DNA of 64,000 nt from assembly GCA_020832235.1 (NCBI GenBank), contig JAFIEZ010000005.1, forward strand, positions 87,374 through 151,373, given 5' to 3'. The translations under genes were made by a program, and so were the position numbers. Positions 23,659 to 49,071 of the stretch are shown here, piece by piece (position 1 is the stretch's first letter; the number at the start of each line of letters is the position of its first letter). This DNA comes from Bacteroidota bacterium. GTDB taxonomy: Bacteria; Bacteroidota; Rhodothermia; Balneolales; HLUCCA01. The notes under the pieces were generated by a model. It searched no databases, was not told the DNA's origin, and was given only the letters and a program-made list of their open reading frames with translations.

Positions 23659-23664
23659 TCTAAA

Positions 23665-23742
<78 letters not shown>

Positions 23743-28091: not shown

Positions 28092-29798
28092 TTAACGCGT
28101 AGCGGTATCAAATTTCAGGTTGCTGGACCCTTCGCCGGTTCCAACGATTTTCCGCCGGGATATCCACAGATACGATGAACCATCGTGCCATCGCGCGAAC
28201 TGGTACTGTCGGTACACATAAATCCCCTCCCTCGGTAATTCTTCATCGAAAATGGCGTTGTTGTTGAGCTCGTTGGATAACGCTCCCATGTAGGTGGTTT
28301 GCTGCTGATCCGGGTGTCTTAACAGTGTGCCCAGATGCAGTTTATTGGATGGTTGCCCCTGTTCGTTTTGTACGGGCAGGAGGGGGAACCAGTAGTCCGG
28401 CACATCGGTAGCGAGGGAGTATTTCAACATGGTAGCATCACCATTGCCCGTATTTTCGGCATCAAATCCGGGTTGCCGGTTATGGTATTTCTCGTGGCGA
28501 TTTATGGTTGATCCGGTTGTTTTGTCCTGCACAATGTGTTCAATCAACCAGGCGGCGTTGACCATTTCATCTCTCATAAAACGTACCTCTTCAATCGATT
28601 CGCTGTGCAGGTAGGGTCCCAAAGCGGGTGGCAGGAACAGAAAGGGCTCGTTGTTCTGAACATGCTGCTCAGTAGCGGTGGAAATGTGGAACATTCTCCA
28701 CGGGGACTTGCCGGATTCTGTACCGTTATCGTTGCCCTGCACAGAACTGTGACTGGCAGTCAGGGTTTCGCCAAAGGTATTGGTAATCTCCAGGCGTTGT
28801 ATTTTGGCGAGGGACCCAATCGGCAGTTCCATGGGAATCGAAAACCAGTTATTCCCGGAAATCAATGCAAATTGAGCCAAAAGCATGCGGCCTATGTCCT
28901 GTGGAGCCGTTTCCAGCGTTCCAAAGTCAACATTGTTATCATCAAATTCCCACCATCGTTGCGACGGCATACCGGCAATTTCGACAGGCATGGGAATGAG
29001 CTCGAGGTTGATTTCATTTGCCGGTGGTTTCGGTGATGTACCTGTAAGGATATCCGATTCAACGGAGAATGCTGGCCAATCCAGATGGCCGCCCCGGTAC
29101 TGATTCACGGCTAGCGTAATTTCGTCGCTGTTTTCGTCGAGTCCGTGAGAAGCTACTGAAAACGCAAACTCCTGACGTTCGGGATTCCAGGCTCCATCAT
29201 GCTCCGATCCGAAAATGGCTTCGTTAGCCCAATCTTTCCATTCCGAGAAGGCTTTTTCGAGGGATTGTTTCTGCGTATTGCTGAGGTTGTCAAACGTCTC
29301 TGAAACTTGCAGAACCTCTAAACCCATCAGCGTTGCTGCATCGATGGACTTTTTCAAATAGGGATGCTTTGAAGCGTCATCCTGGCTTGGGAACCCGGCG
29401 CTGTTAATGAGTTTTCCCCGGTCGGGTTCCGGCAAACCGCCGGCAGCGATGAATTTAAAAAACTCATTTCCAAGCTCTGCCCGAAGTCTTTGATCGAGTC
29501 CGCTGAGCGACTTTTTCTCCTGCTCCACAGCCACCTCAAGCGGAATGGACTCCGGATTATAATCAAGAACGCCGGAGGATGACTTCGCAGCAAGGCTGTC
29601 CAGCTGAACGAAAGTGGCATCAATTTCAGCCTTTACCGGTGATGCGGCATCTTCACCCTCAAACTCGCCAATTTGCCATTGCCGGGCTAACATCCACAAC
29701 GGATCGTGAATTCTTGCCTGAAGCGCCAGTTCATAGTTTGAACTTCGTTGCTTTGGCTCAATCCTGTTCCACGATGTAATTGATAATGATTCCTTCAT
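28092..29798 (-). CDS. Giant-operon gene 5 (568 aa), unknown function
   Basis: Uninterrupted ORF starting 5 nt after the stop of gene 4. No signal peptide or TM segment. W-rich signature-like blocks 'DPLWMLARQWQIGEFEGEDAASP' and 'SQRWWEFDDNNVDFG...GNNWFSIP'. Confidence 0.9.
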   Translation of the reverse strand: MKESLSITSWNRIEPKQRSSNYELALQARIHDPLWMLARQWQIGEFEGEDAASPVKAEIDATFVQLDSLAAKSSSGVLDYNPESIPLEVAVEQEKKSLSGLDQRLRAELGNEFFKFIAAGGLPEPDRGKLINSAGFPSQDDASKHPYLKKSIDAATLMGLEVLQVSETFDNLSNTQKQSLEKAFSEWKDWANEAIFGSEHDGAWNPERQEFAFSVASHGLDENSDEITLAVNQYRGGHLDWPAFSVESDILTGTSPKPPANEINLELIPMPVEIAGMPSQRWWEFDDNNVDFGTLETAPQDIGRMLLAQFALISGNNWFSIPMELPIGSLAKIQRLEITNTFGETLTASHSSVQGNDNGTESGKSPWRMFHISTATEQHVQNNEPFLFLPPALGPYLHSESIEEVRFMRDEMVNAAWLIEHIVQDKTTGSTINRHEKYHNRQPGFDAENTGNGDATMLKYSLATDVPDYWFPLLPVQNEQGQPSNKLHLGTLLRHPDQQQTTYMGALSNELNNNAIFDEELPREGIYVYRQYQFARWHDGSSYLWISRRKIVGTGEGSSNLKFDTATR

Positions 29799-34346: not shown

Positions 34347-37244
34347 TTAATCGTTAATCAAGCCATCTGCATGAATAGCAAACAACGTGGGCGTATTGTA
34401 AATAGACTTGGCTACATCGGCCGCATTTGGATTGGATTGTGCAAGTGTTGCGAAATCAATGTTTTGAGGCAGTTTGAAACTGAGATCGGAAACCGGCTCT
34501 TGCAACACGAAGAACCAGCCCTGATGATCAGCTGCGCCTTCATCGCTTATGACCTCATCGGGCGCCAGGTTGAATCCGAAAAAGGAGATGTCGGCCTCCA
34601 TCGATCCCTTGAAAATGGGCATTCTGATGTTGTTGTCGGTCGATGCGTCTGGAACTCTGTCGGTTGTGCCGATTCCGGTTTCTTCCGATTCCTTCGCTTT
34701 CACAGCATAAATAATGGTGTTAGGATATCGGCGCAGTAAATCTCCCCGAACCATCAAAACCAACGGGGTTGTAGAAACGTCGTCTTCCGAAGGGGAGGGA
34801 TGTTCACCCAGATGATCTCTCCAGCGATGGATGTAATCTATGTCTTTCATCCGGTCCGCATTCTGTTCGTCGGACAAATTTTCATCGGGTATGCTATCGC
34901 TGACATCCCAGAATTGACGGAAATACGTGGCCCTCAGTTCGGTTGGGAATCCCCTCCAAAGCAACTCTCGACCCATTTCGTGATTCACGCCCGTCATGTA
35001 CGATTCGATGAAGGCACGGTTTGCCTGGGCTATAGTAATGGTATTCTGGGGGATTTTCTCGAGCCCCGAAAGGATGTAATCTTTGGAGAGGTCGCGCAGG
35101 GCAATGTACATGGGCTGAGGAAAGTACGGTGCGGCTCGTATCGGTTCGATGGGATCGTTGGGGTCTGCAAGGTTGCCCGGTATGGAAATGCGACCTCTAA
35201 CCCGCTTGGGAATGGTCTTCACCGGATCCAGCTCCTGCAGCAGATGGGTTCGGATGCCGTTCAGATTTAGCTCTTTTTTTGGAGCCTTGGTTTCGGCGGG
35301 GGTGAAGTAGAGGTCGTCGAGGGTCTTGGCCGCTGCCTGCTGAAACGTAGTTCCACGTATGGTGACGGTCGCTGATCCATCGCCTTCGCCCATTGCAATG
35401 TCCATGCTGTCGGAGGCGTCTGTGTTTCGAATCGCGTCCCCGGTGTACGACTCCGGATTGAACTTATCGCGTAATGCATCGTTTGGGAGCCGGTCCCTCA
35501 GCCATTTAACTGCGTACGAGAACCCGAGCAAGAGTACAAAAACAACGAGGGCAATCGGAATGAGGTCAACAAATACGAGCAGGAAAAACAGGATTAACAA
35601 TCCAATCGCAATGGCGCGGACGATCTTCTTAATCTCGGCTACGTTGCCTTCCAGCCATTTTGGCACCGGAATAACGGGGATGGGAACCTCTGTCGACTCG
35701 GGGGTTACCATTCCATCGGGCGGGGTGTCGTCGGGTTCGGCACTAATTCGGCCCGAGTTGATGTCATCCATCAGTTTGGACACGCCATCCAATGCCTTAT
35801 CACCGAACAGACGTTTTGCGATAGCACCATTCGGACGAAACAATCGCTGGAAGGCGCCCGAGAAAAAGGCGGCGGGGATTCTTCCCGTTTCGAGGGTGCC
35901 TGCAACGGTTTGACCGTTATTCTCCTGGTCAATAACTCTCGACTGAACGGTGCGTGTGGCTTGCAAAAAGGAGGTCAGGGGCAGGTTTTTCAGATGCTTT
36001 TCGTGCAGCATGGTTCCGGCCGAGCGGGCGACCTGAGCCTGCTGGAAGTACTCGTTTACACTTTTCAAGTCACCAACCTGCTCCCAGGCCGAGTGCATGA
36101 GGTGTTCCTGGTCGTTTTGGATGACGTTGGTGCCGAGTCCGGCCGTTGCGCGATTTCGCGGGTCTTCATTCAGCGTGTTGAACCATATTCGGGAGGTTTC
36201 GTCAACATGCAGATGGTCCCGGTCTGCCTGGTTGTTTCCGTAGAGCGGCGGACCAAGCACGGGACCGGTAAAGTCCTCGGTTACGGGCTTGTTCAAGTAC
36301 TCCCGCAATTCAGATTGAATGGTAGAGGGATTTTCATCGCGATTAAATCCGGGTGGCACCAATGCGCTTTCAAACAGCACCGGTGAATGGTCCGAAAAAT
36401 CGAGCGTTGCTCCCGGACTGCTTACATCCATTTCCCGGGTTCCTACGCCATCCGGAAGCGGCCTCCCTCTCAATTGTCGAACCAACGTCTTGAAATCGCC
36501 CTTATCTCCGGTACCAAACTCCCAATGATAGTAAACCGGAAGGCGCAGCGAAACCTCGGAGCCTGTCCATGCCGGATCACTTTCGTCGCCGGTAAAGGCC
36601 TCTCCAAGTCCGGCCTTCACCCCGGACTTATACGCTGGCACCAGGAAAGCCTTGTATTTTTCGTTCGCATCCAACGCTTGCGGGCTAACAATGCGGGAAA
36701 TGAGCTTCTCGGGGGTCTGCTCCAGCAGAGCTTCCCAATTCGTGTTGCTGTCGGGCACGTCTTTATCGCCCTGAACATGTGCGAACGACCAGGCCTTGTT
36801 CAACGCCGGCAATCCGGAAGGGTTGTTTATCGTGAGGATGGGAAGCGGATTTCTGGGATTGTTGCTTACATCGGCATCGCTCGACTTTACCACAATCAGC
36901 ACAATCCACGGCCATAGTTTATCGCCATCCGGACTCACCGGCGTAAACATCCATGGAAAGTCAGGCCGGGAGAACTCAATGGCCACCAGATTGGTCGTTT
37001 CGAAATCATACACGTGTTTTTCCGGGGATGTACGGATAATCAGTCGTTGATCAATACCGATGATATCGCCGGGCCCATACGTGGATAAGTCCTTCGTTAG
37101 GGTCTCTTCAGAGGAGGTTGAGCCATCATCATTGCTGCGTTTAATGGTTAAACCCAGCGAAAGCCTGCCATCCGATGAGGACCCTGCCGCCAATCCCTTC
37201 CGAAGAAACGGGAACAGTTTGAATTCAGCTAAGATATCGTTCAT
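34347..37244 (-). CDS. Giant-operon gene 3 (965 aa), unknown function, central TM hairpin
   Basis: The start overlaps the gene 2 stop (ATGA). The hydrophobic stretch 'IVRAIAIGLLILFFLLVFVDLIPIALVVFVLLLGFSYAV' (aa 541-579, nt 35508-35624) splits two large soluble halves. Blocks 'YGPGDIIGID', 'PDFPWMFTP', 'LLWRGFPTELRATYFRQFWD', 'MVRGDLLRRYPNTIIYA'. Confidence 0.9.
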   Translation of the reverse strand: MNDILAEFKLFPFLRKGLAAGSSSDGRLSLGLTIKRSNDDGSTSSEETLTKDLSTYGPGDIIGIDQRLIIRTSPEKHVYDFETTNLVAIEFSRPDFPWMFTPVSPDGDKLWPWIVLIVVKSSDADVSNNPRNPLPILTINNPSGLPALNKAWSFAHVQGDKDVPDSNTNWEALLEQTPEKLISRIVSPQALDANEKYKAFLVPAYKSGVKAGLGEAFTGDESDPAWTGSEVSLRLPVYYHWEFGTGDKGDFKTLVRQLRGRPLPDGVGTREMDVSSPGATLDFSDHSPVLFESALVPPGFNRDENPSTIQSELREYLNKPVTEDFTGPVLGPPLYGNNQADRDHLHVDETSRIWFNTLNEDPRNRATAGLGTNVIQNDQEHLMHSAWEQVGDLKSVNEYFQQAQVARSAGTMLHEKHLKNLPLTSFLQATRTVQSRVIDQENNGQTVAGTLETGRIPAAFFSGAFQRLFRPNGAIAKRLFGDKALDGVSKLMDDINSGRISAEPDDTPPDGMVTPESTEVPIPVIPVPKWLEGNVAEIKKIVRAIAIGLLILFFLLVFVDLIPIALVVFVLLLGFSYAVKWLRDRLPNDALRDKFNPESYTGDAIRNTDASDSMDIAMGEGDGSATVTIRGTTFQQAAAKTLDDLYFTPAETKAPKKELNLNGIRTHLLQELDPVKTIPKRVRGRISIPGNLADPNDPIEPIRAAPYFPQPMYIALRDLSKDYILSGLEKIPQNTITIAQANRAFIESYMTGVNHEMGRELLWRGFPTELRATYFRQFWDVSDSIPDENLSDEQNADRMKDIDYIHRWRDHLGEHPSPSEDDVSTTPLVLMVRGDLLRRYPNTIIYAVKAKESEETGIGTTDRVPDASTDNNIRMPIFKGSMEADISFFGFNLAPDEVISDEGAADHQGWFFVLQEPVSDLSFKLPQNIDFATLAQSNPNAADVAKSIYNTPTLFAIHADGLIND

Positions 37245-40200
37245 GGCAAGAGTTCATTTTGGTCAACGACCTGGTGTGTGTTTTGGCCATCCATCTGGCG
37301 AAGTTTTTGTGCTGTTTCAGCGTAGCTGCCTGCCGTAAAGTCGACCGGCTGCATGGACTGCTTGTCGGTAATGGCATAGGCTTTTTCCTTCAGTTGAATT
37401 CCCATGGATGGAGCGTTGTACCGGGCGAATCCTGTTTTTGTGAGGCTTTTGCCAATAGCGGCGCGGTTGCGATTCATCACCGTCTGGAACTTAGGATGCA
37501 GGGTCAGTTTGAGTGCCAGCGGCACATCCTGCGGACCATCCACCACAATTTGCTCATATTCCAGCGTTTTCAGGGTGCCATCGGGGGCAACGGCGGTGCT
37601 GGACTGAATCTCGGCACCGGCGGTAAACGACTCAAACGAAGGACGTGAAAGCTTTTCCTTATCGGTTAGCGACAAAAACTGAGCAGGGGCAAAGTACTCT
37701 TTGGTTTCGCGGAAGGAGGCATCGTTGCTGTTGGACGTTATGCCCTCAATGCGGAATGTTCGGGCCCCGGTTGGCAGCGCATTCCCGAATTTCTCGATTT
37801 CCAGGTTAAAAGGAACAACCTGCTGCCGGAACTGAATAACGCCAAGAGGATGCACTTTTTCTGAACTTCCCTCTTTGAACATCACGAAGGCATCATCCTT
37901 TGATGGGAGCTCGGCATACCAGTTATCATCGGCTTCAAGCGCACTTTTGAGCAGAGGCCAGACATCGGCGCTCGGCAGTTCTTCCGGCTTCTTCTTGCCA
38001 ATGGTAAGATCAAAGGAAATGGATCCCTTGAACAGGAGAATTTTGATGGTGGCCTTGCCTTTTGCCCTCCATTGGTTGGGACCGGACAGGGTAAACGAAA
38101 CCGACAGTCCCATAATGTGCTTCGATTTTCTTCGCAAAGCCACCGATCCATACACATCTACGATGAAATAAAACGGCGAAAACTGAAAGAGAGCATCGAA
38201 ACCCAGGGTTCCGGTAACATTCCAGTTACCCGCTGCCGCGTATAGGTCGAGCCGGGCTCCGACCTGGGCTGTGTTCGAGGTCAGTGCCAGGTAGGCCTCC
38301 AGCCGCATTTTGGGATTGTTTCCCGAGGACAGGCTAATGGCCAGTCGATCAAGTTCCGGAAAAGCCGGCGGTCTATTAAATGCAGGATGCATGCCTCCCA
38401 ATGAGAGCGCAAACGCGGGTTTATTCCCGTATTTCATGCGCATTGCCATATCGCCCGAAAGCGTGTATAGCGTTAATCGGGAGTCGAACAGGGTTGCGTC
38501 AATGGATATGGTTTTCTCGCCAAAATCAATCACTCCCAGCATATCCAGGTTGATTTTCACCAACGCGGCCTGTTCGGTAGGTAAGGCCATCCGGATTCTG
38601 CCCAGAATAATCAGGCGCAGCGGTGATGGCATATCCAGCAGTACACCCAGCTCAATGGTCAATATTTTTGGTGTTCCCCAGGTGATGGAGGCCATGGGAC
38701 CAAAAACGTAGCGGCTTTGCTGCACCGGGAATATGGAGCCGAGGCTGCTGATGAGTGCCGGGGCGTTGTTCACCGGATCTTGCGGGAAGAGAATGCTGCC
38801 CAGACTGTTGGTGCGTAATCCTTCGCGCATCGCCTCTACCAGTACATTGCGGTGGGCGCCAAACAATCCGCCGACTTTTGAAAGACTAAAGCCAAAGCCC
38901 AGCTGGATGGATGGTGTGAATTCAGCGGTGATGATGAGCAGCAGTGAGTAGCCCTTGGATCCATCCGGCATTTTGGTGTTGAGAATCCCGATGGCGTTGA
39001 GTCCCACTTTGGCAAACTCGAGCTGCAGCACTCCCGCATATTCGCCCTTATCGGGATTAAAACTGAGGAAACCTCCACCGGTGACCGCTCCGGTATCTAT
39101 GGTTAAGCCAATGGCGGATGGGGGCCTGAACGAAAGGCTGAGTCCGTAGCTGTCGTTCGAGGACCCATGAAAATTGAGCACATTGAAGGTATCGGGGTCG
39201 GTTCGTCGGCCTATGCTTGCCTTTAGTCCCAGTCCGTCAACCGACATGGCCAGGGGACCGAGTTTGACATTTCCGGTGAGCAGGGCCTCAATATCCAGCT
39301 CCTGATTGGTAAATGCCCCCGATAATTGAATGGTGCTGACATTAAGCAGGCTCGAAGGGGAGCCGGTATTCAGGGAAATGGTCGTAGATAAGTCATTCCC
39401 ATTCTGAAAATACAGGCCGTTTTGGTCGTTGAAGCCGAATACGATATCAAAGGTATTCTGTAAGCCATTCTCCGGCAGTATCGTAGCGATGAAGCCGTCG
39501 GGATTGTCAGGTTGCAGCGAAAAAGCGACATCCTTCAACTGAAATCGAATATCGTAGGATTTATCGTCGTTTTCGACCTCGAGTTTGGCCCCGAGATCCA
39601 TCCCGTTAAACGTTATGTTTGCAAGTCCGGGCAGCGAAAACAGGGAATGACCGGGCGGAGGGGCGATGTACGTCAGGTTTGATGCGACCGACAGTTCTGT
39701 TGATATAGCCCCGTCGTTGAGGTTGACGGTTCTGAATCTGTTATCGGTAAACTCGATGGCGGCGTCCAGATCTGCTGAAAGAGATGATTGCAGGGCCCAT
39801 TTCAACGTGTTGGACAGGGTTCTTTCGAAATTTAAGCCCGCGTTGCCGAAGAAGTTTAGTCGGAGCCCGGACTGGTCGCTTTGATCGCTGTAGCCTGACA
39901 GAAACGCGCCGAGCTCGGCAGTCTGGGGCGGGGTGTTGTTCTGTAATAATGTAAGTCTGATGGCGTTGGATGTAAACTCGTCATCAATCAGTTGAATCAG
40001 TTCTACGTTTTCGGTCAGGTTGGTTAGTGCGGAATACAGCCTGATAATCAGGTAATCCGGATTGAAAGATGAAGAGTTCGTGTCAAAAATATTGCCCAGC
40101 TCTTGTAATGGATCCTGAATTATCTCGGCGATTCTGGAAAATTCGATTTTTTGTCTTTCCGAGCTGTCGGTTGTAATCAGCCCCGCGAAAACGGATGCGT

Positions 40201-40645
40201 GATACACGGATGGATGGTGCCTTTTAAGAAACTCTACCGCCAGGTAATCGAAGATTTTGCCAAGAATAACATCAGGCGGGTCGGCCTCGGGATCGGTGGT
40301 ATTCAGGTTGTTCTTTAGCTCGTATAAGTGATCCAGCGATTGTTCGATCGTTTGGATGAAATCACCGTTTCCGGACTCATGACTTGACCAAATATCACCT
40401 ATCAACTCTATGGAAGCGAGGGTTTGTTCAGCGATCAGGGTAGCATTTCCCATATTCACCTTGGCGGCCTCGAGAAAATTGAGCGTCAGGCTGAGTTTAT
40501 TGGTAGAGATGATTTCCGACTCACCCGTGGTAACATCATGCAAGGGTACTTCAAACGTAACAGGTGTGCTCCTTGCAATAGTGGTAATCGGCTCGAAAAA
40601 CTTCTCGAACTGTTCTAGAATGTTCTCAACGCTGGACTGACTCAT
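37241..40645 (-). CDS. Giant-operon gene 2 (1134 aa), unknown function; helical N-terminus and a large beta-rich module
   Basis: Uninterrupted 3.4-kb ORF starting 12 nt after the gene 1 stop. G/S/L-rich beta-like segments include 'GVLQLEFAKVGLNAIGIL', 'QLGFGFSLSKVGGLFG', 'LSLGGMHPAFNRPPAFPELDRLAISL' and 'TGTLGFDALFQFSPFYFIVDVYGSVAL'. From memory this resembles the DUF6603 type; that is unverified. Confidence 0.9.
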   Translation of the reverse strand: MSQSSVENILEQFEKFFEPITTIARSTPVTFEVPLHDVTTGESEIISTNKLSLTLNFLEAAKVNMGNATLIAEQTLASIELIGDIWSSHESGNGDFIQTIEQSLDHLYELKNNLNTTDPEADPPDVILGKIFDYLAVEFLKRHHPSVYHASVFAGLITTDSSERQKIEFSRIAEIIQDPLQELGNIFDTNSSSFNPDYLIIRLYSALTNLTENVELIQLIDDEFTSNAIRLTLLQNNTPPQTAELGAFLSGYSDQSDQSGLRLNFFGNAGLNFERTLSNTLKWALQSSLSADLDAAIEFTDNRFRTVNLNDGAISTELSVASNLTYIAPPPGHSLFSLPGLANITFNGMDLGAKLEVENDDKSYDIRFQLKDVAFSLQPDNPDGFIATILPENGLQNTFDIVFGFNDQNGLYFQNGNDLSTTISLNTGSPSSLLNVSTIQLSGAFTNQELDIEALLTGNVKLGPLAMSVDGLGLKASIGRRTDPDTFNVLNFHGSSNDSYGLSLSFRPPSAIGLTIDTGAVTGGGFLSFNPDKGEYAGVLQLEFAKVGLNAIGILNTKMPDGSKGYSLLLIITAEFTPSIQLGFGFSLSKVGGLFGAHRNVLVEAMREGLRTNSLGSILFPQDPVNNAPALISSLGSIFPVQQSRYVFGPMASITWGTPKILTIELGVLLDMPSPLRLIILGRIRMALPTEQAALVKINLDMLGVIDFGEKTISIDATLFDSRLTLYTLSGDMAMRMKYGNKPAFALSLGGMHPAFNRPPAFPELDRLAISLSSGNNPKMRLEAYLALTSNTAQVGARLDLYAAAGNWNVTGTLGFDALFQFSPFYFIVDVYGSVALRRKSKHIMGLSVSFTLSGPNQWRAKGKATIKILLFKGSISFDLTIGKKKPEELPSADVWPLLKSALEADDNWYAELPSKDDAFVMFKEGSSEKVHPLGVIQFRQQVVPFNLEIEKFGNALPTGARTFRIEGITSNSNDASFRETKEYFAPAQFLSLTDKEKLSRPSFESFTAGAEIQSSTAVAPDGTLKTLEYEQIVVDGPQDVPLALKLTLHPKFQTVMNRNRAAIGKSLTKTGFARYNAPSMGIQLKEKAYAITDKQSMQPVDFTAGSYAETAQKLRQMDGQNTHQVVDQNELLP

Positions 40646-40657
40646 TCGTGCTCTTGT

Positions 40658-42586
40658 TTAAGATTTATAGTATTCCAATAACTTTACCTGGTCGTCGCCT
40701 TCACCAATGACTGCAGTCATTTGATACCATTTTCCTACTAATTCATCCATTTCGTCATTATCTCGAGATATTGAGGTTTCTCCGTTTGAAAAGAGCCTTC
40801 TCATATCCTCTCTATCTAAAAAGTCCTCATGAGATCCACCATTCTCTATTGGTCCGACATCGAAATGCGTTGTGAAACTTCTCTGCAGCCATCGGTGATG
40901 AACGCCATCAATCTCTCTGAAAGGTTGAAATAAAACAGAGAAAGTGTATCTGCCTGTTTTCAATGAAAAGTTGAGCGGATTTAAAAATGTCTGCATCCTG
41001 TTTATTTGTTCTTCCAGTGCAATTTGTGGATCAGGATGATCAAAGTTGTAGGCTACATGGTCCGGCTCATTATTTTTTGTGGCAGCTATAATCCCTTTTG
41101 TTCCGAAGTAGCAATAGTCTGCAAACTGTTCATAAACACTTCGTTGACCTCGTGAGATCAAGGCACTTCCAATTAATGCAAGTGTTGAAATGATTAAGCT
41201 AGCAACCCAAAATTTTGGCCCGCCAGCTATGGAAAGAACTCGCATATAAGCTCCAAGACTGAAAGACATTACAGAGCCTGAAACGACAACTAAATTCCCG
41301 ATGATAACCATGTTTTCACCGTAAATCGCAGCGTAATGTATATTTCGGCCGGCAATTACAATGTCAATTACCACAATGATGAATCCAAGTCCTAAACCTA
41401 TTCTCTTTCCGTTTAACTTTCTGTTACTTCCAGTCTTTAGACGTTTCGTAACATTCTCAGTAATAACATTAACAGCGTTAACAGCCTTTTTTACATCTTC
41501 AGCACTAATATTTTCTTCATTATTAAAACTAGATGCAATTACTATGGTTGATTTAGCTCCTGCAATGATAGACAAGGCGTCAAAAGCAAGGCCCACCATA
41601 GTGCCTAACTTCGTTTCGAACTTAGATATCTCTTCGGCTAAATCTTCATCAGTTGTTGCATTGTTAAACGCTTCTATTGCACTTGCTGGGAGTACTAACA
41701 AGAATAATTCATTAACAATATCTTGTGCACTATCTGTCAGTCCATGGGTAAGATCATTCTCAACGGTTGACCGATACAGAAGCGACATCCATACAAATGG
41801 AATCACATCTTTAGCAAAATAACTCAACAGGGTGAATGCACTTACTACAGGTGCACTGTTTGTGGCGGGTATACTAGCCGCTATATCCCTTTGGAATTGC
41901 TCACCAAGTTCAGCATCAGCAAAATTAAGAACAGGAACTCCGTTAGGGTCTTCATCAACCTTTACGCCAATGTCACCAATTATTCCCTTAATTCTTGGAA
42001 TTTCAAGTAACTCTCCGGACAGTGTCGAGGTTTCCTTTAAGTAGTCAATTCCTGTTTCAGTATAACCCAAAGCACCAATTACGGTGTTGAGGAATTGGAT
42101 TTTGGCAACAGTATTAAGCTCGTCGAATGCTGAAAGCAAGTCACCAGTTTTAACATTAGTGATTATGCTGTTCGTGTAGAATTCCATCAGGTTTTCAATC
42201 GTAAACTCAAATTCTTCAAAAGGTTTGCTTTTACTTTGGTCTAGACTACTACGAAATTTGGATAAAATTTCGCTACCATCTTCACCACTTGACTCCAAGG
42301 CTTCCGTAAAACTTTTTATTGACTGGAGTAATCTGATTTTTTCTTTTCGATTAGAATCAGCATCAAAACGTAAGCGCCCTGAATTTACGTTAATGTGTTG
42401 TTCCATGTCGCTTTCAGAGGAATTGAAAACTTTTTTTAACAGCTCATCTTTAACACTTTTTTCGGGGTCATGACGTATTTCCAAGCCTGTATTCAAATAC
42501 TTGATGTGCAAATCAAGGATATACTCAATTTCAATTGCCATCAGCACAGTGGCTGACAAACGTTGTGATCCGGTTGTATTACTCAT
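40658..42586 (-). CDS. Giant-operon gene 1 (642 aa), unknown function, helical protein with a clustered TM/glycine-zipper-like region
   Basis: ORF visibly AT-richer than genes 2-5. Hydrophobic cluster at aa ~395-478 (nt 41153-41404): 'IGLGLGFIIVVIDIVIAG', 'MVIIGNLVVVSGSVMSFSLGAYM', 'FWVASLIISTLALIGSALI'. The start may instead be the internal ATG at 42541. Confidence 0.85.
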   Translation of the reverse strand: MSNTTGSQRLSATVLMAIEIEYILDLHIKYLNTGLEIRHDPEKSVKDELLKKVFNSSESDMEQHINVNSGRLRFDADSNRKEKIRLLQSIKSFTEALESSGEDGSEILSKFRSSLDQSKSKPFEEFEFTIENLMEFYTNSIITNVKTGDLLSAFDELNTVAKIQFLNTVIGALGYTETGIDYLKETSTLSGELLEIPRIKGIIGDIGVKVDEDPNGVPVLNFADAELGEQFQRDIAASIPATNSAPVVSAFTLLSYFAKDVIPFVWMSLLYRSTVENDLTHGLTDSAQDIVNELFLLVLPASAIEAFNNATTDEDLAEEISKFETKLGTMVGLAFDALSIIAGAKSTIVIASSFNNEENISAEDVKKAVNAVNVITENVTKRLKTGSNRKLNGKRIGLGLGFIIVVIDIVIAGRNIHYAAIYGENMVIIGNLVVVSGSVMSFSLGAYMRVLSIAGGPKFWVASLIISTLALIGSALISRGQRSVYEQFADYCYFGTKGIIAATKNNEPDHVAYNFDHPDPQIALEEQINRMQTFLNPLNFSLKTGRYTFSVLFQPFREIDGVHHRWLQRSFTTHFDVGPIENGGSHEDFLDREDMRRLFSNGETSISRDNDEMDELVGKWYQMTAVIGEGDDQVKLLEYYKS

Positions 42587-42680
42587 TGCAGCTTATTGTT
42601 GGCATACGAGCTTAATTCAGCTTGCAGCTTATGTTTGGCATGCGAGCTTAGCTCGGCTTGCAGCTTCTTGTTGCGGACTA
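42587..42680. repeat. 36-bp tandem direct repeat (about 2.5 copies) abutting the start codon of the giant operon
   Basis: tgcagcttattgttggcatacgagcttaattcagct (42587-42622), tgcagcttatgtttggcatgcgagcttagctcggct (42623-42658), and tgcagcttcttgttgcgg... (from 42659). On the minus strand 'TAAGCT' recurs 4 times at about 18-bp spacing. Each unit contains a short palindrome (gagcttagctc, gcatgc). Confidence 0.85.
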
Positions 42681-43107
42681 ATTACCAGCGGCAATCTATT
42701 AACGTGTACCTTGATAATGTGAAACTCCTGCCTGAATAAGACTTTTCAGGAGCTATTGCTTCAATTGATGTTCAGAAGACAGGTCTTAATTGCTGGTTTA
42801 AAAGTCGTTAGCATTTTAGGTCATGCGACTAAATACAAAACATATTGAAGGATGTCAAACCAAATCGAGTGTTTTGCCGGGATAGCTATTTCGGGGGATC
42901 TCAATCCGGCCAAATTTGAGCCGGATTGAGCAAATAGTTGCCAAGTTCAGGTGCTTATTTTGGTGGGATGATTGCGAGATTCAGGTTTGTTGTTCGTCGG
43001 GATGGTTGTCCGCTTTAGTTTTTATAGTGGGGTTCTTTCCCACTGCAGGATTGTTTTTTGGTGGGATGGTTACCTGCTTCGATTTTATTATTGGGAGGGG
43101 TGCCCGC

Positions 43108-44049
43108 TTAAATTTTCATTTCGCCGGAGATGGCTGCCGGCTCACTAAGCTCCAATTCTTCAGCTGCGGACACATCCTTCTTGTGCTGCAGATACACCAG
43201 CGAAGCGCCGATGCCCAGGGGCAATAATCCTACGAGACCGACTATCGGGTAGATACTGTAATCCATATCCGCAAACATCGGGTCTGTTAGAGCGGGCGAG
43301 TTTTGCATCAACAGCATAAATATAGCCGAGCTGACCATGGCGCCGCCAAACCCCGCGATGGTCCACCCGAGAACGGCCTGCCAGCGCATCCATCCCCATA
43401 GAACGATGCTCAGAGTAAACAGCAAAATGGTGGGAATACTGATTACGATTATGACGATAGGTGGCGAGGTCACTTGAGACATGAATAGGAATACGATCAT
43501 GATAAGGAGAAACATGGCCGCAAAAAATGCCGATATCAAAGCGAAAATCTTGGCTATCACGCTTTTGCGTTTTTGGGCACTGCGGACGGATTTCATTCGA
43601 ATCTGAAGTTCGCTATCGGTGTACGTTCCCGCAAAAAAAGCGGTGGTAGTCGGCAGGAACAACAGATAAGCGAATAGCATGTAGATTATGATGCTAAACA
43701 GGATGAAAGGCAGCTGAATATCCATCACCAAAAAACTGGCTGCAAACGAAAGCGGGTAGTAGGCAAGAAAAAAGGTCCTGATCCAGGCTTGTTTGTTCAA
43801 AAGGAAATACCCTAATGAAAACATAACGATGCCGCTCACCAGGTTGAACATGATCATTCCGGGGATGTTGGCTCCGATATGTTGGAGGCTATTTGCGGTT
43901 TCAGGATTTACAAAAGTGAGGAGTCCGTAAATGGAGAAAATTGCGCTGACGATGAAATACCATCCCAGAATGGTAACAACGGTAGGGCGATTTTTATTTT
44001 CGAATAGTTTTTCGACGGAGGTGTCGTTGAAAATAGCAGTGATGTTCAT
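43108..44049 (-). CDS. Polytopic integral membrane protein, unknown function
   Basis: 313 aa with about 8 hydrophobic helices (for example 'VVTILGWYFIVSAIFSIYGLLTF', 'IFALISAFFAAMFLLIMIVFLFM'). No family recognised. Confidence 0.75.
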   Translation of the reverse strand: MNITAIFNDTSVEKLFENKNRPTVVTILGWYFIVSAIFSIYGLLTFVNPETANSLQHIGANIPGMIMFNLVSGIVMFSLGYFLLNKQAWIRTFFLAYYPLSFAASFLVMDIQLPFILFSIIIYMLFAYLLFLPTTTAFFAGTYTDSELQIRMKSVRSAQKRKSVIAKIFALISAFFAAMFLLIMIVFLFMSQVTSPPIVIIVISIPTILLFTLSIVLWGWMRWQAVLGWTIAGFGGAMVSSAIFMLLMQNSPALTDPMFADMDYSIYPIVGLVGLLPLGIGASLVYLQHKKDVSAAEELELSEPAAISGEMKI

Positions 44050-44200: not shown

Positions 44201-44734
44201 TCATCTGATTCGCTTGTAATGCAGCTGCGTTAAACCGGTGTCGAACGACTTCGCGCTCACAAATTCGAGGCGTTGTTCGGGTCGGTTGTCTTTGAATAGT
44301 CTCGTTCCGTTGCCGAGCAAAATCGGAATAACGGAAATAATCAATTCGTCTATCAGGTCGTGCTGAAGCAGTTCATGAATGATTTCGGCGCCACCATCGC
44401 AATAGATGTCTTTTCCATCCTCTGACTTGAGTTGCTGGACCAATGCCTGCACGTCGCCTGAGTAGAACGTCGTTTTGCCAACGCTCGGCCTTTCCGTTCG
44501 GGTGATTACATAGACGTCGCGATGGCCGTTATCGTAATGTTCAGAACCGATTGCTTTAAGCACATAATCGTAGGTCTTTCTGCCGAGAATAATGGTGTCG
44601 ATGTTAGCCGTGAACTCGGCGTAGCCGTAATCTTCACCATCCTTCTCAACTAATTTCAGAAAGCTCAGGTCGTCATTCGGCTTGGCGATGTATCCGTCTA
44701 AACTAGACGCTATGAAAAGGGATAGTTTCCGCAT
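44201..44734 (-). CDS. Dihydrofolate-reductase-family protein (RibD C-terminal domain type)
   Basis: 'MRKLSLFIASSLDGYIAKPNDDLSFL...DTIILGRKTY...IYCDGGAEIIHELLQHDLIDELIISVIPILLGNGTRLF' is typical of RibD_C/YwjB-like reductases. The internal ATG at 44734 was chosen as the start. Confidence 0.8.
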   Translation of the reverse strand: MRKLSLFIASSLDGYIAKPNDDLSFLKLVEKDGEDYGYAEFTANIDTIILGRKTYDYVLKAIGSEHYDNGHRDVYVITRTERPSVGKTTFYSGDVQALVQQLKSEDGKDIYCDGGAEIIHELLQHDLIDELIISVIPILLGNGTRLFKDNRPEQRLEFVSAKSFDTGLTQLHYKRIR

Positions 44735-44759
44735 GGTTGGTTGATTTTTATACGAATTT

Positions 44760-46973
44760 CTATCCAATCACTCTTTCAAATACTCCAACAACTCTGAAAT
44801 TGACTATTCCTTCTTCTATAAGCACTATTTCTTTATACCTATCTTCACTTGATAGTGGCTTCAATATGATAGATGTATGCGCCCAATCATCGTTAGAATC
44901 GTTTTTTACACTTTGATACTCTTTAACTGTGTACCCAGAACCAAAATCTGCGTCATGAATATCAGAGGACTCTACTAAAACGATTTTACCATTTCTTGAA
45001 CCTCCTGAATAACGTCTGAATAAACAATATGAACCATTAGGAATACGCTTATTCATGGACTCCCCGACAACTTTACAGATAAAGTCCCCTTCACGTATTG
45101 ATATGCCCTCTGGTGCAGTGACCCAGTTTAGCTCCGAGTGAAGTTGATTTTCCGAAAAATTGCCCGCAGCAGCCTGAATGTCGACCAGTGGCACCGCATT
45201 TTCATAAGGTTTTACTTTATCGAAGTCCAATATTTCAAAGACGGATGCTTCTGGCTTTTGTTTCTTGGTTGTACTCTTAACAGATGCATCACTTTTTATA
45301 TGAGCGCTTAAATAGTCTCGTAGATCAGGATCGCATGCGTAAACCAAAGTTCCCTTAATGCCACGGTACATGATTGTTTTGTAGATGTTAACTATGTATT
45401 CTTTCAAGTGCTCATCGTTATCTATACCGGCACTTCCATTTCGATCATAGTAGTTTTGTCGGATGATTTCAATCCGATTTAAAGGTTTGTTGTACGTAAT
45501 CTCCTTGCCGAAGATAATTCCGGCGTAGTTTAAATCATATCCCTGCGTTGTGTGAATACAGCCTACTTCGAGCTCTGCGTTGGCTGAGTTAATCCAGTCG
45601 ATATTTACGTTGTTCCACTGTAATTCTTGTCCTTCAATTACAATGTCGTACTTACTTTTGTCCTCTTTTGAAATCCAGGACCAGGAATATCCGGCAATAA
45701 GACGACATAGCCCCATTTGCTTTTCTTTGGCTACGATTTCATTGTGAAATTCACGGAAAGAGGTAAACAGTCGGAAATCATAGTCATCAGGAATGGATAA
45801 ACCCTGTAAAGGTTGACATTTTAAGAGACGATCAACAAAGTTGATGTAGTCATTGCCTGCAGAAACCCGCATTTGCGAGGTAAGTTTAATGGGCTTAATC
45901 GATTGGCTTTTTATTGCTTGAAAACGTTCTTTTGGGATGTCAGATGGCTTTATGGATTGTGCTTCATCATAAAAGAATATCTGCTGTTTACTGTTCATTA
46001 AAATCCAATCAAGCTGGGTGCCCTCGTTTCCTAAGCCCATTAAACGGTTAGTAGCGTCAAATGATCCATAATTAGGAATGTTCTTTCTACGAGCAAGGCG
46101 ATGCGCTTCATCCACGATGAGAATGTCATACTTCTTTTTTACAACATCGGATGGACCTATGACCATATTGGCACTTAGACCCCCTATCGCTCGGAAAACA
46201 GTTTTTAGACTTCCTCGAAGTGAAGTCATGGGTACTACCAACCCAATATTCACATCTTTAAATCGCTGTTGAAACGTCTCTAATAAACGATACTCCTGCA
46301 GACGATACCCCTCAAGGTCTTCAATTTCATCCGGTGCCGGAAGCGGCGAATGCAAAAGCTTCATCAAATATGTTGCAAGAATGGTTTTTCCGGTTCCTGC
46401 ACTTCCTTCAACAAAGAGATTTGGTTGCTGACGGCTGTTTAATGCGTTAATAATCTCCATCACGGAAGATCGTTGGTCATCTGACAGCGCTTTGTAAGGT
46501 GAGTATTTGAATAAATCGGAGTTCTCGATTTCTTCTATAGACTTGCTAACTAACTTTTCACTTCTTAGTCGGTTCCAGATTTCCTCAAATAATTCCCGAT
46601 ATAGTGGTTTTTCGTAGTAGTTGTGATGGGTTAAGCCCCCATTTCCGTTTTGGAGGATGTATGTATTCTCGGCAGAGAGATATTGGATAAGCTGAGATTC
46701 AATGTCTAATGTTGCTGATTTATTAAAACGGTCAGAACCAATCAAGGTAATGGTATTCAATACCGTGCGGTCATCATTAGCGAAGTGATTCTTTATGCGA
46801 TTGTAAGCATTGGTGGTTTCCCCAACATACGCCAATTTACGAGAGTCATTCTTAATGATGTAAACCAGAGGCCACTGACTCTTGACCCATTTATTTTCTG
46901 CAATTTCAGAGAATGCATTTTTATTGAAAGGGTACCTCGCTAAATCAACAACGATGTTCGTACCGAGGCTCAT
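44760..46973 (-). CDS. GIY-YIG nuclease / DUF2075-type P-loop NTPase / LexA-like S24 peptidase fusion protein
   Basis: N-terminal GIY-YIG-like 'LVYIIKNDSRKLAYVGETTNAYNRIKNH...LDIESQLI'. Walker A 'VEGSAGTGKTILATYL'. Walker B 'YDILIVDEAHRL'. C-terminal 'VPLVDIQAAAGNF...VVGESMNKRIPNGSYCLF...GKIVLVES...YTVKEY', which is LexA/UmuD-like. Confidence 0.8.
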   Translation of the reverse strand: MSLGTNIVVDLARYPFNKNAFSEIAENKWVKSQWPLVYIIKNDSRKLAYVGETTNAYNRIKNHFANDDRTVLNTITLIGSDRFNKSATLDIESQLIQYLSAENTYILQNGNGGLTHHNYYEKPLYRELFEEIWNRLRSEKLVSKSIEEIENSDLFKYSPYKALSDDQRSSVMEIINALNSRQQPNLFVEGSAGTGKTILATYLMKLLHSPLPAPDEIEDLEGYRLQEYRLLETFQQRFKDVNIGLVVPMTSLRGSLKTVFRAIGGLSANMVIGPSDVVKKKYDILIVDEAHRLARRKNIPNYGSFDATNRLMGLGNEGTQLDWILMNSKQQIFFYDEAQSIKPSDIPKERFQAIKSQSIKPIKLTSQMRVSAGNDYINFVDRLLKCQPLQGLSIPDDYDFRLFTSFREFHNEIVAKEKQMGLCRLIAGYSWSWISKEDKSKYDIVIEGQELQWNNVNIDWINSANAELEVGCIHTTQGYDLNYAGIIFGKEITYNKPLNRIEIIRQNYYDRNGSAGIDNDEHLKEYIVNIYKTIMYRGIKGTLVYACDPDLRDYLSAHIKSDASVKSTTKKQKPEASVFEILDFDKVKPYENAVPLVDIQAAAGNFSENQLHSELNWVTAPEGISIREGDFICKVVGESMNKRIPNGSYCLFRRYSGGSRNGKIVLVESSDIHDADFGSGYTVKEYQSVKNDSNDDWAHTSIILKPLSSEDRYKEIVLIEEGIVNFRVVGVFERVIG

Positions 46974-47299
46974 AGCTCATCATATTTCTTGGCTGTTCCT
47001 TTCGCTTTTTCGATGGGGTATTTCTTCCCGTTTCGCTCCACTTTCTCAGCGACGATATCATAGACATCGAACTGATACTTATCTGCTAGTAAAAACGCAT
47101 AAGCAAATACATCAGCCAACTCCTCCTTTACTTTATTAACATTGGCATCCTCGGCATTTTTCCATAGATAAGCCTCTAATAGTTCACCAGATTCAATGTT
47201 CAATGCAATTGCCAAATCCTTCGGGTTGTGAAATTGTGCCCAATCTCTCTGGTCTCTGAATTCAATCAATTTTTCCGTTAGCTTTTTGATATCGCTCAT
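46970..47299 (-). CDS. MazG-like nucleoside triphosphate pyrophosphohydrolase (small all-alpha NTP-PPase)
   Basis: 109 aa. 'FRDQRDWAQFHNPKDLAIALNIESGELLEAYLWK...EELADVFAYAFLLADKYQFD...KVERNGKKYP'. The stop overlaps the start of the DUF2075 gene (ATGA). Confidence 0.85.
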   Translation of the reverse strand: MSDIKKLTEKLIEFRDQRDWAQFHNPKDLAIALNIESGELLEAYLWKNAEDANVNKVKEELADVFAYAFLLADKYQFDVYDIVAEKVERNGKKYPIEKAKGTAKKYDEL

Positions 47300-47532
47300 A
47301 CTATTAATGATTCAGGCATTTATGTCTATTAGTGTCCTAAACTTAAAGGGGATTAAAGCATTACCCGTGAAATACCAATCTATTTCATAAATAGCAAAGT
47401 ATGAAAATGGAGTGTTTCGATATCATAGGATAGCGATTTATTGTTTCATGCTTAAGTATTATGGCAAAAAACGGTAACATCCAGAACTAGATTGGATATA
47501 TCTATTCAAGATGTCAGCTTGTACTATGGTTT

Positions 47533-49071
47533 CTAATGACGTAAAAGAAGTTGACGACCTTTGTCGGTCAGACGGTACTTTTGGAGCCGACTTTTTGGTT
47601 TATCGGGAATCGTCATCTCTACGAGCTCGAATTCCAAGGCTGGCTGCAAGTATCGATCGCGAAAGTTAGCTTGGCTTTGAAGATTCATGGCAATTTGTAA
47701 TTGTGTCCGTGACACGGTCTGATCAGACAAATACTTGATTAATGCCATTACTTCATCTGTTACTTCGAGTGGCACATATGGGGTGACTTCACCTGTGACT
47801 TCACCTGTGACTCCTCTATAACTCTTCGAAGCGGGTTCGTACCTATCTGGTGAGGGCGTCCATTTTCTCCAAATAGTTGTAATCCAGAATCCACCTTCGA
47901 TTCGGATTTCAGGTTCGCGAAGCCCTGCCTCATTACATCGCGTTATCATATCACGGATTCCCGTGCCCATACGCTCAATATACTTGGTGAGATATAGCGG
48001 TTCGGCAATCAAAGGGTTATGCGGTACAGAACCGTGGGGCTGTCGAAGCATTTCCACAGTGAGACTTGGAGGCAGGGAACCCGGATTCCATACTTCCAAT
48101 CGGTCTTTAAAGAGCATCACCTGTACACTGCCATTGCTGGTGTAATCACGGTGACAAATAGCATTGACGATGGCTTCCGAAACTACTTCTTGTGGAATTT
48201 CATAGGAAGTTGGTACCTGAACTCCTTGAGAACGGTCACCGGTCCACAAGTCAATTTTGGACAGTACAAAGTCCTTTGACTGATCAATTAGGTCAAATAA
48301 TGTCCCTTTATACACCTGGTAGGACGGTATTGGCTTTTCTATATCGAAGCCATGAAACCTAGCGCATTTTACCTCCGAGCTGATTACAAAATGCTGTGGA
48401 GACTTGCCAAACAATAGTATGGCAGCATGCGTTGGACGAGATTTGTCAAGTAAGTTAAGATGTGTGAGTACCTCAATGGGCTGTGTCCCATCCGCAAGTG
48501 GGAAACTGCGTGCATTCCGCGCATGGATTAGAAACCGGTTGATTTTGTCGTTATCAAGATCATCTATACTTGCATTACGGCACCAAGTGGCATCAAACGG
48601 AGTATAACGGATGATTTCGCGTTCCTCTAGGATTCTAATCAGGCTGGCATAAACTGCAGAAACAAGTTCTTCAGATGCATTAAACCTTCGGCGAATTAAT
48701 GATGCGCCCGCTTCGTCAATCAAGGTTGACATTTTCGGGTGTCTGCCGGCATTTCCAGACCCTTTTACAAATATCAAGCGAGTCTTACCCAGCCGTGTAG
48801 CCTCCCGAAATTCGTGATGTGTTGGAGAGAGTCCGTTTTCATCTTGCCACCCATATTCATTACCGAATATGCCCAGATAGAGGTCACAACGTGCGACTTC
48901 ATCGAGGTATGTCGTATCAGCGCGTTTATCTGCAGCTGGGACATCCTCAAACAAAAAAACATCGAAAAATTTACGTAGCAGAGCATCTCCAATTAGAAAA
49001 TCCCGTATAGCGCGACGTTCGTCGGCTAGTTCTTTTTGCACACTACTGATAAATATGCGAAGTACGGTCAT
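47533..49071 (-). CDS. DUF4062 / AlbA_2 (Schlafen-like) / HATPase_c_4 / wHTH protein (RecG-like 'putative DNA-binding' family)
   Basis: N-terminal 'RIFISSVQKELADERRAIRDFL...CDLYLGIFGNEYG' is DUF4062-like. 'PTHAAILLFGKSPQHF' is AlbA_2-like. 'EAIVNAICHRDYTSNGSVQVMLFKDRLEVWNPGSLP' is HATPase_c_4-like. The C-terminal tail is wHTH-like. Confidence 0.8.
   Translation of the reverse strand: MTVLRIFISSVQKELADERRAIRDFLIGDALLRKFFDVFLFEDVPAADKRADTTYLDEVARCDLYLGIFGNEYGWQDENGLSPTHHEFREATRLGKTRLIFVKGSGNAGRHPKMSTLIDEAGASLIRRRFNASEELVSAVYASLIRILEEREIIRYTPFDATWCRNASIDDLDNDKINRFLIHARNARSFPLADGTQPIEVLTHLNLLDKSRPTHAAILLFGKSPQHFVISSEVKCARFHGFDIEKPIPSYQVYKGTLFDLIDQSKDFVLSKIDLWTGDRSQGVQVPTSYEIPQEVVSEAIVNAICHRDYTSNGSVQVMLFKDRLEVWNPGSLPPSLTVEMLRQPHGSVPHNPLIAEPLYLTKYIERMGTGIRDMITRCNEAGLREPEIRIEGGFWITTIWRKWTPSPDRYEPASKSYRGVTGEVTGEVTPYVPLEVTDEVMALIKYLSDQTVSRTQLQIAMNLQSQANFRDRYLQPALEFELVEMTIPDKPKSRLQKYRLTDKGRQLLLRH

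Follow-up and report, generated by a model that had tools for sequence, protein, structure and literature searches.

Tc toxins (TcA/TcB-TcC), Rhs proteins and the cargo of extracellular contractile injection systems (eCIS) combine a conserved machine with a variable payload that has a shared docking element. In CBASS (cyclic oligonucleotide-based antiphage signaling system) and Pycsar (pyrimidine cyclase system for antiphage resistance), which are modular anti-phage systems, transmembrane (TM) effectors occupy a variable effector position. Hydrophobic helices rich in Gly, Ala and Ser and flanked by Lys and Arg are typical of the insertion hairpins of toxins that pass from a soluble to a membrane state, such as those of colicin pore domains and the diphtheria toxin T domain. 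The locus considered here lies in a stretch of 64,000 nucleotides (nt), hereafter the window, from the metagenome-assembled genome of a Bacteroidota bacterium of the Balneolales (GenBank assembly GCA_020832235.1, contig JAFIEZ010000005.1, positions 87,374 to 151,373). It is an operon of five genes, the second of which encodes a protein of the DUF6603 family (PF20248), and gene 1, the subject of this report, occupies the position directly upstream of the DUF6603 gene (slot 1). With a probability of about 0.5, we read gene 1 as a membrane-active payload, itself exchanged horizontally, of a four-gene DUF6603 system.

Genes 1 to 5 lie on the same strand with successive gaps of 12, -4, 4 and 5 nt. 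An earlier note on this DNA, made without database searches, had taken a 642-amino-acid (aa) minus-strand open reading frame (ORF) as the first gene of the operon, and ORF calling agrees. In the following list, secondary structure and predicted local distance difference test (pLDDT) scores come from AlphaFold2 (AF2) models, hydropathy is on the Kyte-Doolittle scale, and insertion energies are from a position-independent Hessa-type scale, applied to 19-residue windows:

40658-42586, minus strand: gene 1, the first gene of the operon and its slot-1 gene; an AT-rich ORF of 642 aa from a very rare family
41432-42586, minus strand: N-terminal part of gene 1, residues 1-385; mainly helical (AF2, pLDDT 50-84)
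41141-41431, minus strand: hydrophobic cluster of gene 1, residues 386-482; three helices, with a Lys/Arg-rich stretch just before them
40661-41140, minus strand: C-terminal α/β domain of gene 1, residues 483-642; best-conserved part of the protein; strands within 539-640 (AF2); candidate docking domain
37241-40645, minus strand: gene 2, DUF6603 protein (PF20248) of 1134 aa; start 12 nt past the gene 1 stop
39626-40645, minus strand: N-terminal region of gene 2, residues 1-340; variable among DUF6603 proteins; candidate adaptor for the slot-1 protein
34347-37244, minus strand: gene 3, core protein of 965 aa with a central, strongly hydrophobic segment
35508-35624, minus strand: putative TM hairpin of gene 3, residues 541-579; insertion energies -3.5 and -1.1, Kyte-Doolittle 3.1
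29804-34342, minus strand: gene 4, core protein of 1512 aa; homologues in 69 loci
28092-29798, minus strand: gene 5, core protein of 568 aa; 53 homologues

Relation to Described Systems

Gene 1 and its operon belong to no described system, and gene 1 was negative in every test of membership among the TM effectors of modular defence systems and the hydrophobic-hairpin toxins. Gene 1 resembles the TM effectors of CBASS and Pycsar in that it is a hydrophobic-helix protein where sister operons hold enzymes, has no adjacent immunity gene and lies in a defence-like neighbourhood. However, the DUF6603 operon has neither a nucleotide-signal synthase nor a nucleoside triphosphatase (NTPase), and genes 1, 2, 4 and 5 have no PADLOC match. 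Gene 1 is also much larger (642 aa) than those effectors and has big soluble domains, and the tyrosinase, galactose oxidase, M64 and PhoD payloads of DUF6603 operons are unusual for defence effectors.

The likeness to Tc, Rhs and eCIS lies in the architecture. The DUF6603 core is large, has no ATPase and is paired with a hypervariable payload; unrelated slot-1 catalytic domains have a short terminal tail in common, and this tail co-varies with one domain in a core protein; and the system spreads horizontally and is found on plasmids. However, no core protein matches the families of Tc, Rhs, eCIS or type VI secretion systems (T6SS) in Pfam or NCBIfam, searched with genes 3-5 and 27-33 homologues of each for TcA, TcB, RHS-repeat, sheath, tube or baseplate domains. 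Moreover, unlike in Tc, Rhs and eCIS, the payload is a separate upstream gene rather than a C-terminal extension, and the core includes a protein with a putative cytoplasmic-membrane hairpin.

A third comparison is with T6SS- and type VII secretion system (T7SS)-type membrane toxins, such as Tde1 with its N-terminal glycine zipper (PMC10240207) and S. suis LXG-T2 (PMC12955049). Gene 1 shares with these two toxins, and with colicin-type pore domains, small-residue-rich hydrophobic helices inside a largely soluble helical protein, and it is plausible as one of several interchangeable toxic payloads, like the toxins of T6SS and T7SS. Unlike in glycine-zipper toxins, however, its zipper motifs are no commoner than chance gives. 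Those ORFs of the window that were scanned contain no T6SS, T7SS or contact-dependent inhibition (CDI) domains, and there is no conserved small ORF adjacent to gene 1. In contrast to colicin-type pore domains, gene 1 has no Pfam or PDB similarity.

The DUF6603 Core

A word-index homologue search gave few DUF6603 proteins, and loci were therefore drawn from genome contigs. The contigs of one genome per species (~186,000 species-representative genomes) were scanned with a DUF6603 alignment, which gave 347 relatives in bacteria and haloarchaea. ORFs were called in all loci (given L numbers below) and then searched with the window proteins by phmmer; many contigs end early. Of the 347 relatives, the loci of the best 80 were examined, and the operational definition of a DUF6603 (PF20248) operon is taken from the loci studied here. 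The 80 loci span Bacteroidota, Acidobacteriota, Actinomycetota, Proteobacteria, Myxococcota, Planctomycetota, Chlorobi/Ignavibacteria, Nitrospirota and Gemmatimonadota, and include one haloarchaeal megaplasmid. By tblastn the family is present on 21 plasmids, including haloarchaeal and Streptomyces plasmids, where the Prokaryotic Genome Annotation Pipeline (PGAP) labels the neighbouring genes hypothetical; there was no match in phage genomes (tblastn) or in E. coli genomes. Homologues were found of gene 2 in 87 loci, of gene 3 in 68 (n = 69), of gene 4 in 69 (n = 73) and of gene 5 in 53 (n = 53), mostly in the gene order of the window and following the DUF6603 gene on the same strand; homologues of genes 3-5 come after it in most of the 80 loci.

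Gene 2 matches PF20248 with an E-value of 6.8e-135 (450.9 bits; gathering cut-off 27). In its AF2 model (13 sequences, mean pLDDT 62.9), residues 500-890 form many long antiparallel β strands (pLDDT 83-93) and the N-terminal 210 residues are helical at low confidence; from this model, the DUF6603 domain is read as a large β-meander, barrel or sheet. The many long antiparallel strands are shared with several giant β-proteins, and Foldseek against the PDB returned only weak matches, to SlpA/SDBC (8agd), ApoB100, the FimD/PapC ushers, LptD and SprA of the type IX secretion system (T9SS). However, template-modeling scores of 0.1-0.3 correspond to a generic β-meander, the DUF6603 protein has no signal peptide, and the family also occurs in monoderm bacteria and haloarchaea. 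Comparison of the model with a viral structure library gave nothing meaningful.

The hydrophobic segment of gene 3 is ~40 residues long, and 42 of 67 homologues have a comparable one (a 19-residue window of at least 1.8), mostly in the middle of the protein. Judged from its hydropathy, segment 541-579 is probably a membrane hairpin, which would leave both large domains on the cytoplasmic side. No P-loop was found in genes 1-5, and Pfam, PADLOC, NCBIfam and PHROGs returned nothing for them but DUF6603; gene 3 gave one sub-threshold JAB match in PADLOC (E 0.0098). Pfam searches with homologues of gene 3 (33 proteins) and gene 4 (27 proteins) were uninformative, and sequence and profile searches of the PDB with the five proteins gave nothing. 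No structure or annotation of the system was found, and no paper in the literature searched names DUF6603, PF20248 or IPR046538.

A Variable Slot Upstream of DUF6603

A slot-1 gene was defined as a same-strand gene at most 120 nt upstream of the DUF6603 gene (n = 67 loci); gene 1, with its gap of 12 nt, is such a tightly coupled gene. All six members of the gene 1 family that have downstream DNA directly precede a DUF6603 gene (L006/L007, L008, L009, L010, L093 and the window), and a hidden Markov model (HMM) search found no gene 1 homologue in L011-L090. BLAST clustering of the slot-1 proteins from the 67 loci gives 12 singletons and groups of 21, 12, 10, 5, 5 and 2, the second group of five being the gene 1 family. 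In a Pfam census of 63 slot-1 proteins, PhoD-like phosphatases (11 of 63) are followed by M64 peptidases (8), Nal1/trypsin-like proteins (8), S8 subtilases (4), M14 carboxypeptidases (2), one tyrosinase and one galactose/glyoxal-oxidase-like protein. Judged by eye, the slot-1 N-termini have no obvious signal peptides. When the profile of the gene 1 family was compared with those of all other slot families (hhalign), probabilities were at most 0.3%, and among slot families clustered hydrophobic helices are found in the gene 1 family only.

The earlier note had suggested that gene 1 is a separately acquired or exchangeable module in front of a conserved core and had proposed to check whether homologous operons have unrelated genes in the first position. 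They do, as the diverse Pfam content of the slot and the lack of profile likeness to gene 1 show. Exchangeability holds for the slot, which is variable across 67 loci, but not for the gene 1 homologues themselves: these are invariably linked to the core, which the note had named as a result that would speak against its view. Because all members with downstream DNA precede DUF6603, gene 1 is one of many system-specific slot alternatives and not a free module.

The slot region takes several other forms. Five loci (L022, L028, L032, L047 and L065) have the gene order g4-g5-X-g2-g3, in which the slot gene X is still just upstream of DUF6603. Some DUF6603 proteins (L003/L004, L013, L051, L072) reach 1500-2700 aa through long extensions at the N-terminus, for which Pfam gives no match, and these loci lack a separate slot-1 gene; the extensions may be a fused payload or adaptor, and a PIN toxin-antitoxin pair lies upstream in L003. 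In loci such as L026, L081 and L083, DUF6603 comes after a tightly coupled series of two to four genes, each encoding 500-600 aa, which may form an array of several slot genes. In a Loktanella sp. (L002, 5068-10004), the slot-1 protein has 1503 aa and no Pfam match, and a 142-aa Prok-JAB protein comes before it. On a linear plasmid of Streptomyces europaeiscabiei (L092), the four-gene core lies between tyrosine recombinase genes on both sides, and DUF6603 and its upstream neighbor are on opposite strands.

Slot-1 Proteins and the DUF6603 N-Terminus

The N-terminal region of DUF6603 proteins co-varies with the slot-1 family. Searched by phmmer with residues 1-340 of the window protein, L008 (3e-15), L006/L007 (~1e-13) and L010 (1e-8) rank first and the next loci follow at 1e-5 to 6e-4, and the region is recognisably similar only in loci with a gene 1 homologue. 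Residues 341-1134, by comparison, score 510-620 bits in nearly all loci, and here the gene 1-family loci rank 2nd, 13th and 81st. The relation holds generally: 86% of locus pairs that share a slot family have similar N-regions, versus 33% of pairs that differ in it, in a comparison that controls phylogeny only by binning pairs on C-domain score (450-600 bits). Gene 1-family loci share the DUF6603 N-domain with one another and with only 9% of the other loci.

The proteases show the same relation in a different way. Slot-1 subtilases (L035, L036, L049) share with trypsin-like slot proteins only the last ~110 residues, and the DUF6603 N-regions of subtilase and trypsin-like loci are similar in 98% of pairs, versus 35% with other loci of similar C-domain similarity. 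Unrelated catalytic domains thus have a tail in common, one that goes together with the DUF6603 N-domain, and from this co-variation we infer docking of the slot-1 C-terminal part on the DUF6603 N-terminal domain. By analogy with the protease tail, the docking part of gene 1 would be residues 483-642. A universal C-terminal tag on slot-1 proteins was sought and not seen, the shared tail being confined to the protease cluster, and the only match of the gene 1 C-domain among other slot proteins is a marginal one in Natrinema (E 0.041).

This Natrinema protein is encoded by the slot gene of L011, on a plasmid of Natrinema gelatinilyticum (8631-9914, 427 aa, no Pfam match), which is the most extreme in composition (GC content 0.38 versus 0.63 in its core). 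Its similarity to the gene 1 C-domain (HMM E 0.041, hhalign E 0.19) is a lead, not a result. The DUF6603 N-region of L011 is among the few that are weakly similar to that of the window (E 6e-4).

The Gene 1 Protein

The gene 1 family is very rare. An exhaustive HMMER search of 1.84 billion representative proteins found seven representatives of 608-650 aa (E 1.6e-138 to 9.5e-4), and a word-index search of 5.8 billion clusters returned two, gene 1 itself and one relative with 39% identity. Searches of gene 1 against Pfam, PADLOC, NCBIfam, PHROGs and the PDB gave no match, a PDB profile search gave nothing below E 0.17, and Foldseek with the low-confidence model gave nothing below E 0.05. The model, built from a 7-sequence alignment, has a mean pLDDT of 57.6, falls below 50 across the hydrophobic region and was used for secondary structure only; generic α-solenoid matches from Foldseek were rejected.

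Hydropathy places the hydrophobic segments of gene 1 at residues 395-413, 426-444 and 459-477, and AF2 predicts helices at 388-420, 424-452 and 457-479; the three hydrophobic helices thus lie at about 395-417, 424-452 and 457-479. The predicted N-terminal part is mostly helical and the C-terminal domain of ~160 aa is β-rich, which agrees, at the low confidence of the model, with the two flanking parts delimited in the earlier note. All seven family members have the three helices at conserved positions. Residues invariant in the alignment (n = 7) are D407 (in helix 1), G429 and G455-P456 in the hydrophobic block, and F487, A488, G494, F514, Q526, P536, G601, W619 and Y638 in the C-terminal domain. 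Mean pairwise identity is 0.28 in the hydrophobic block and C-domain versus 0.20 in the N-terminal part, which is the least conserved.

The note had further described the hydrophobic helices as a clustered TM region with glycine-zipper-like spacing. The cluster stands, as three conserved hydrophobic helices, but its hydrophobicity is marginal and a TM location is a prediction: the insertion energy is below zero in helix 3 alone (458-476, -0.8), the invariant Asp lies within helix 1, and no 19-residue window of the family proteins P0009 and P0010 scores +2 kcal/mol or lower. The zipper does not stand. The segment contains 3 small-xxx-small-xxx-small motifs versus 2.9 ± 1.8 in shuffles of the same segment, and only the enrichment in Gly, Ala and Ser is real (a fraction of 0.33 versus 0.20 in the remaining protein); P0009 alone exceeds the shuffle expectation (9 motifs versus 4.5 ± 2.0). 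These values are more in keeping with a hairpin that inserts conditionally than with a constitutive polytopic protein, and gene 1 is plausible as a membrane effector, as the note had also suggested.

Marginally hydrophobic helices could alternatively be the buried core of a soluble helical sensor, regulator or unrecognised enzyme with no membrane role. Such a protein would fit a single 19-residue window of negative insertion energy in gene 1 and none in P0009 and P0010, the invariant D407 within helix 1, the charged residues that separate the helices and zipper spacing at chance level. However, three consecutive G/A/S-rich hydrophobic helices of 20-30 residues are conserved in position across seven very divergent sequences and are flanked by Lys/Arg clusters, and we consider a soluble core unlikely.

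The note's other suggestion for gene 1, the anchor of the complex, can be put more broadly as a structural or adaptor subunit, not toxic, that anchors or organises the DUF6603 complex at the membrane. Constant adjacency to DUF6603, co-variation with its N-domain and the absence of an immunity gene would all suit such a subunit. A strong and conserved membrane hairpin is already predicted in gene 3, however, the slot elsewhere usually holds soluble enzymes, with the core complete without gene 1, and the gene 1 helices are weakly hydrophobic for a constitutive anchor. This role is quite unlikely, and we favor membrane activity over anchoring because of the gene 3 hairpin, the enzymes that otherwise fill the slot and the clustered hydrophobic helices that gene 1 alone has among slot families.

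Composition and Origin of Gene 1

Gene 1 is a compositional outlier in its operon, and the features by which the earlier note had recognised it (codon usage and long A/T runs) agree when computed. Its GC content is 0.387 and its GC content at third codon positions (GC3) 0.330, versus 0.50-0.53 and 0.55-0.60 in genes 2-5; the GC content of the whole window is 0.492. A single maximum-likelihood GC3 change-point across genes 1 and 2 falls at codon 629/643 (0.326 before, 0.591 after), and the boundary is therefore the end of gene 1 and does not lie inside gene 2. Codon usage in gene 1 deviates by 0.286 per codon versus 0.036-0.099 in genes 2-5, the highest value among genes of more than 400 codons. 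The codons AAA, AAT, TTA and ATT, which the note had named, amount to 145 per 1000 codons versus 78-97, TTA makes up 32% of Leu codons versus 7-11%, and A/T runs of at least 8 occur 5.2 times per kb versus 0.35-1.5 (3-15x). The bias is largely synonymous, and thus amino-acid content does not explain it.

Across 65 loci, the GC content of slot 1 minus that of the core has a median of -0.007, and the window (-0.127; GC3 -0.247) is the second most extreme. Low-GC slot genes elsewhere are unrelated to gene 1 (L011, -0.25; L063, -0.10; L089, -0.09; also L065), and that of L063, another Balneolaceae genome, encodes a subtilase. The gene 1 family is not AT-rich as such: the family genes of the high-GC loci L009 and L093 have the GC3 of their DUF6603 genes (0.887/0.880 and 0.930/0.934), and the homologue in L008 matches its own core (GC difference +0.002). 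The closest homologue, at 39% identity, sits on a contig with a GC content of 0.30. Two signs of transfer are thus present, namely deviant GC3 and codon usage and a sharp boundary, whereas flanking repeats, an integrase and a high-identity donor are not; a search for flanking direct repeats or mobile-element scars around gene 1 found none. Most simply, the gene 1 allele found here probably came from a low-GC lineage and replaced the earlier slot gene by horizontal transfer.

The AT-richness could instead have arisen by selection, for example through rare codons that limit a toxic protein or through silencing of AT-rich DNA. The lack of repeats or scars is compatible with this, as are the host-like GC3 of the gene 1-matched DUF6603 N-domain and the family member L010, which is likewise somewhat AT-richer than its core (-0.085). 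It fits poorly, however, with the other family members (L008, L009, L093), which equal their cores in GC or GC3, with the coincidence of the change-point and the end of gene 1, and with a nearest homologue that comes from a 30%-GC organism. The unrelated low-GC genes of L011, L063 and L089 fit a slot that is a recombination hot spot. Selection is, on balance, improbable as the cause.

Proposed Function of Gene 1

We propose that the DUF6603 system consists of a β-sheet DUF6603 protein, a membrane-hairpin protein and two further large proteins, and that the gene directly upstream of DUF6603 supplies a payload that differs from copy to copy and is in most cases a hydrolase or oxidase lacking a signal peptide. 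The C-terminal domain of gene 1 would dock onto its family-specific DUF6603 N-terminal domain, and upon activation or delivery the hydrophobic helices would enter a membrane and make it permeable. This would make gene 1 the membrane-damaging counterpart of the enzymatic payloads, and its invariant Asp a candidate for a functional role. More tentatively, the DUF6603 core may be an unrecognised machine of bacteria and haloarchaea, anchored in the cytoplasmic membrane by the gene 3 hairpin and centred on a giant β-sheet or barrel protein, that takes up slot-1 payloads through a matched pair of tail and N-domain, gene 1 being a pore-forming payload. The system as a whole might serve abortive-infection-type defence or be a delivery or export machine. 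Counted for defence are the defence-like genes just upstream, the absence of an immunity gene and the patchy and mobile distribution; counted for delivery or export are payloads from typically extracellular families that have no signal peptides, the giant β-sheet domain and the absence of an NTPase.

Several points weigh against reading gene 1 as a horizontally exchanged, membrane-active payload. It has no homology to any characterised pore-former or TM effector, its hydrophobicity is marginal, with one helix of negative energy and none in some homologues, and its AF2 model is of low quality (pLDDT 57.6). The gene 1 family has no conserved immunity-like gene beside it, which is awkward for an antibacterial toxin. 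The co-variation between N-domain and slot is partly confounded by phylogeny, and the DUF6603 N-domain that matches gene 1 has a host-like GC3 (0.52-0.56), so that a recent swap must have replaced a gene of the same family, or the AT-richness has another cause. Finally, "payload" is used as an analogy.

Upstream Region and Neighborhood

Two features lie immediately upstream of gene 1:

42587-43107, minus strand: upstream intergenic region of 521 bp, presumed operon promoter and leader
43108-44049, minus strand: polytopic membrane protein with 7-8 hydrophobic segments

A 36-nt tandem repeat (42586-42673; 2.4 copies, 83-94% identity) touches the ATG of gene 1. Each copy holds a short palindrome (GAGCTAAGCTC-like), the repeat is unique within the window, and it may be an operator or leader element. 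Further upstream, CATCCCRMCRAA occurs three times on the minus strand at 42959-43068 and nowhere else in the 64 kb; as the pattern was derived from these same three copies, only its local restriction is informative. An Rfam scan of the 521-bp leader region gave no match.

That the polytopic protein is a partner of gene 1 or its immunity factor, as the earlier note had speculated, is very improbable: it is indeed a membrane protein encoded upstream on the same strand, with 7-8 hydrophobic segments and a weak PADLOC match to a "2TM effector" model (E 6.7e-4), but a 521-bp gap with repeat motifs separates it from gene 1, its GC3 (0.59) is that of the core and unlike gene 1, it has no homologue across L001-L090, and the region upstream of the other gene 1 homologues holds no conserved ORF, the neighbor there being absent, unrelated or on the other strand.

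A block at 44201-49071, further upstream, resembles a defence island. It encodes a RibD_C/DHFR-like protein, a 109-aa MazG-like protein, an AT-rich fusion of GIY-YIG, a Schlafen-type helicase and an S24 peptidase (GC content 0.40), and a protein with DUF4062, HATPase_c_4 and Fic-like_C (Schlafen/AlbA-like) that matches pAgo-associated PADLOC models (E 9e-13). The region downstream of the operon (21111-27103) has a mosaic composition, with a DUF285 repeat protein (22336-23514) of GC content 0.39 and an unusually low GC content at first codon positions (0.36), and a 1045-aa M1-peptidase-like protein (23966-27103) of GC content 0.58. The window also contains ordinary Bacteroidota chromosome genes, among them SusC/D, FecR, TamA/B, dnaX and recR.

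Implications

Should the functional reading fail, a clear allele replacement in a conserved operon, marked by its composition, remains. If it is true, the DUF6603 operons would form a widespread modular system and a new route to deliver or activate toxic or extracellular proteins, and gene 1 would represent a new family of proteins that permeabilise membranes and share an invariant intramembrane Asp. The variable slot provides a direct experimental handle on the system, as it offers, within five genes, recognisable enzymes, or here a hydrophobic-helix protein, as payloads that each seem to be paired with a matching adaptor domain.

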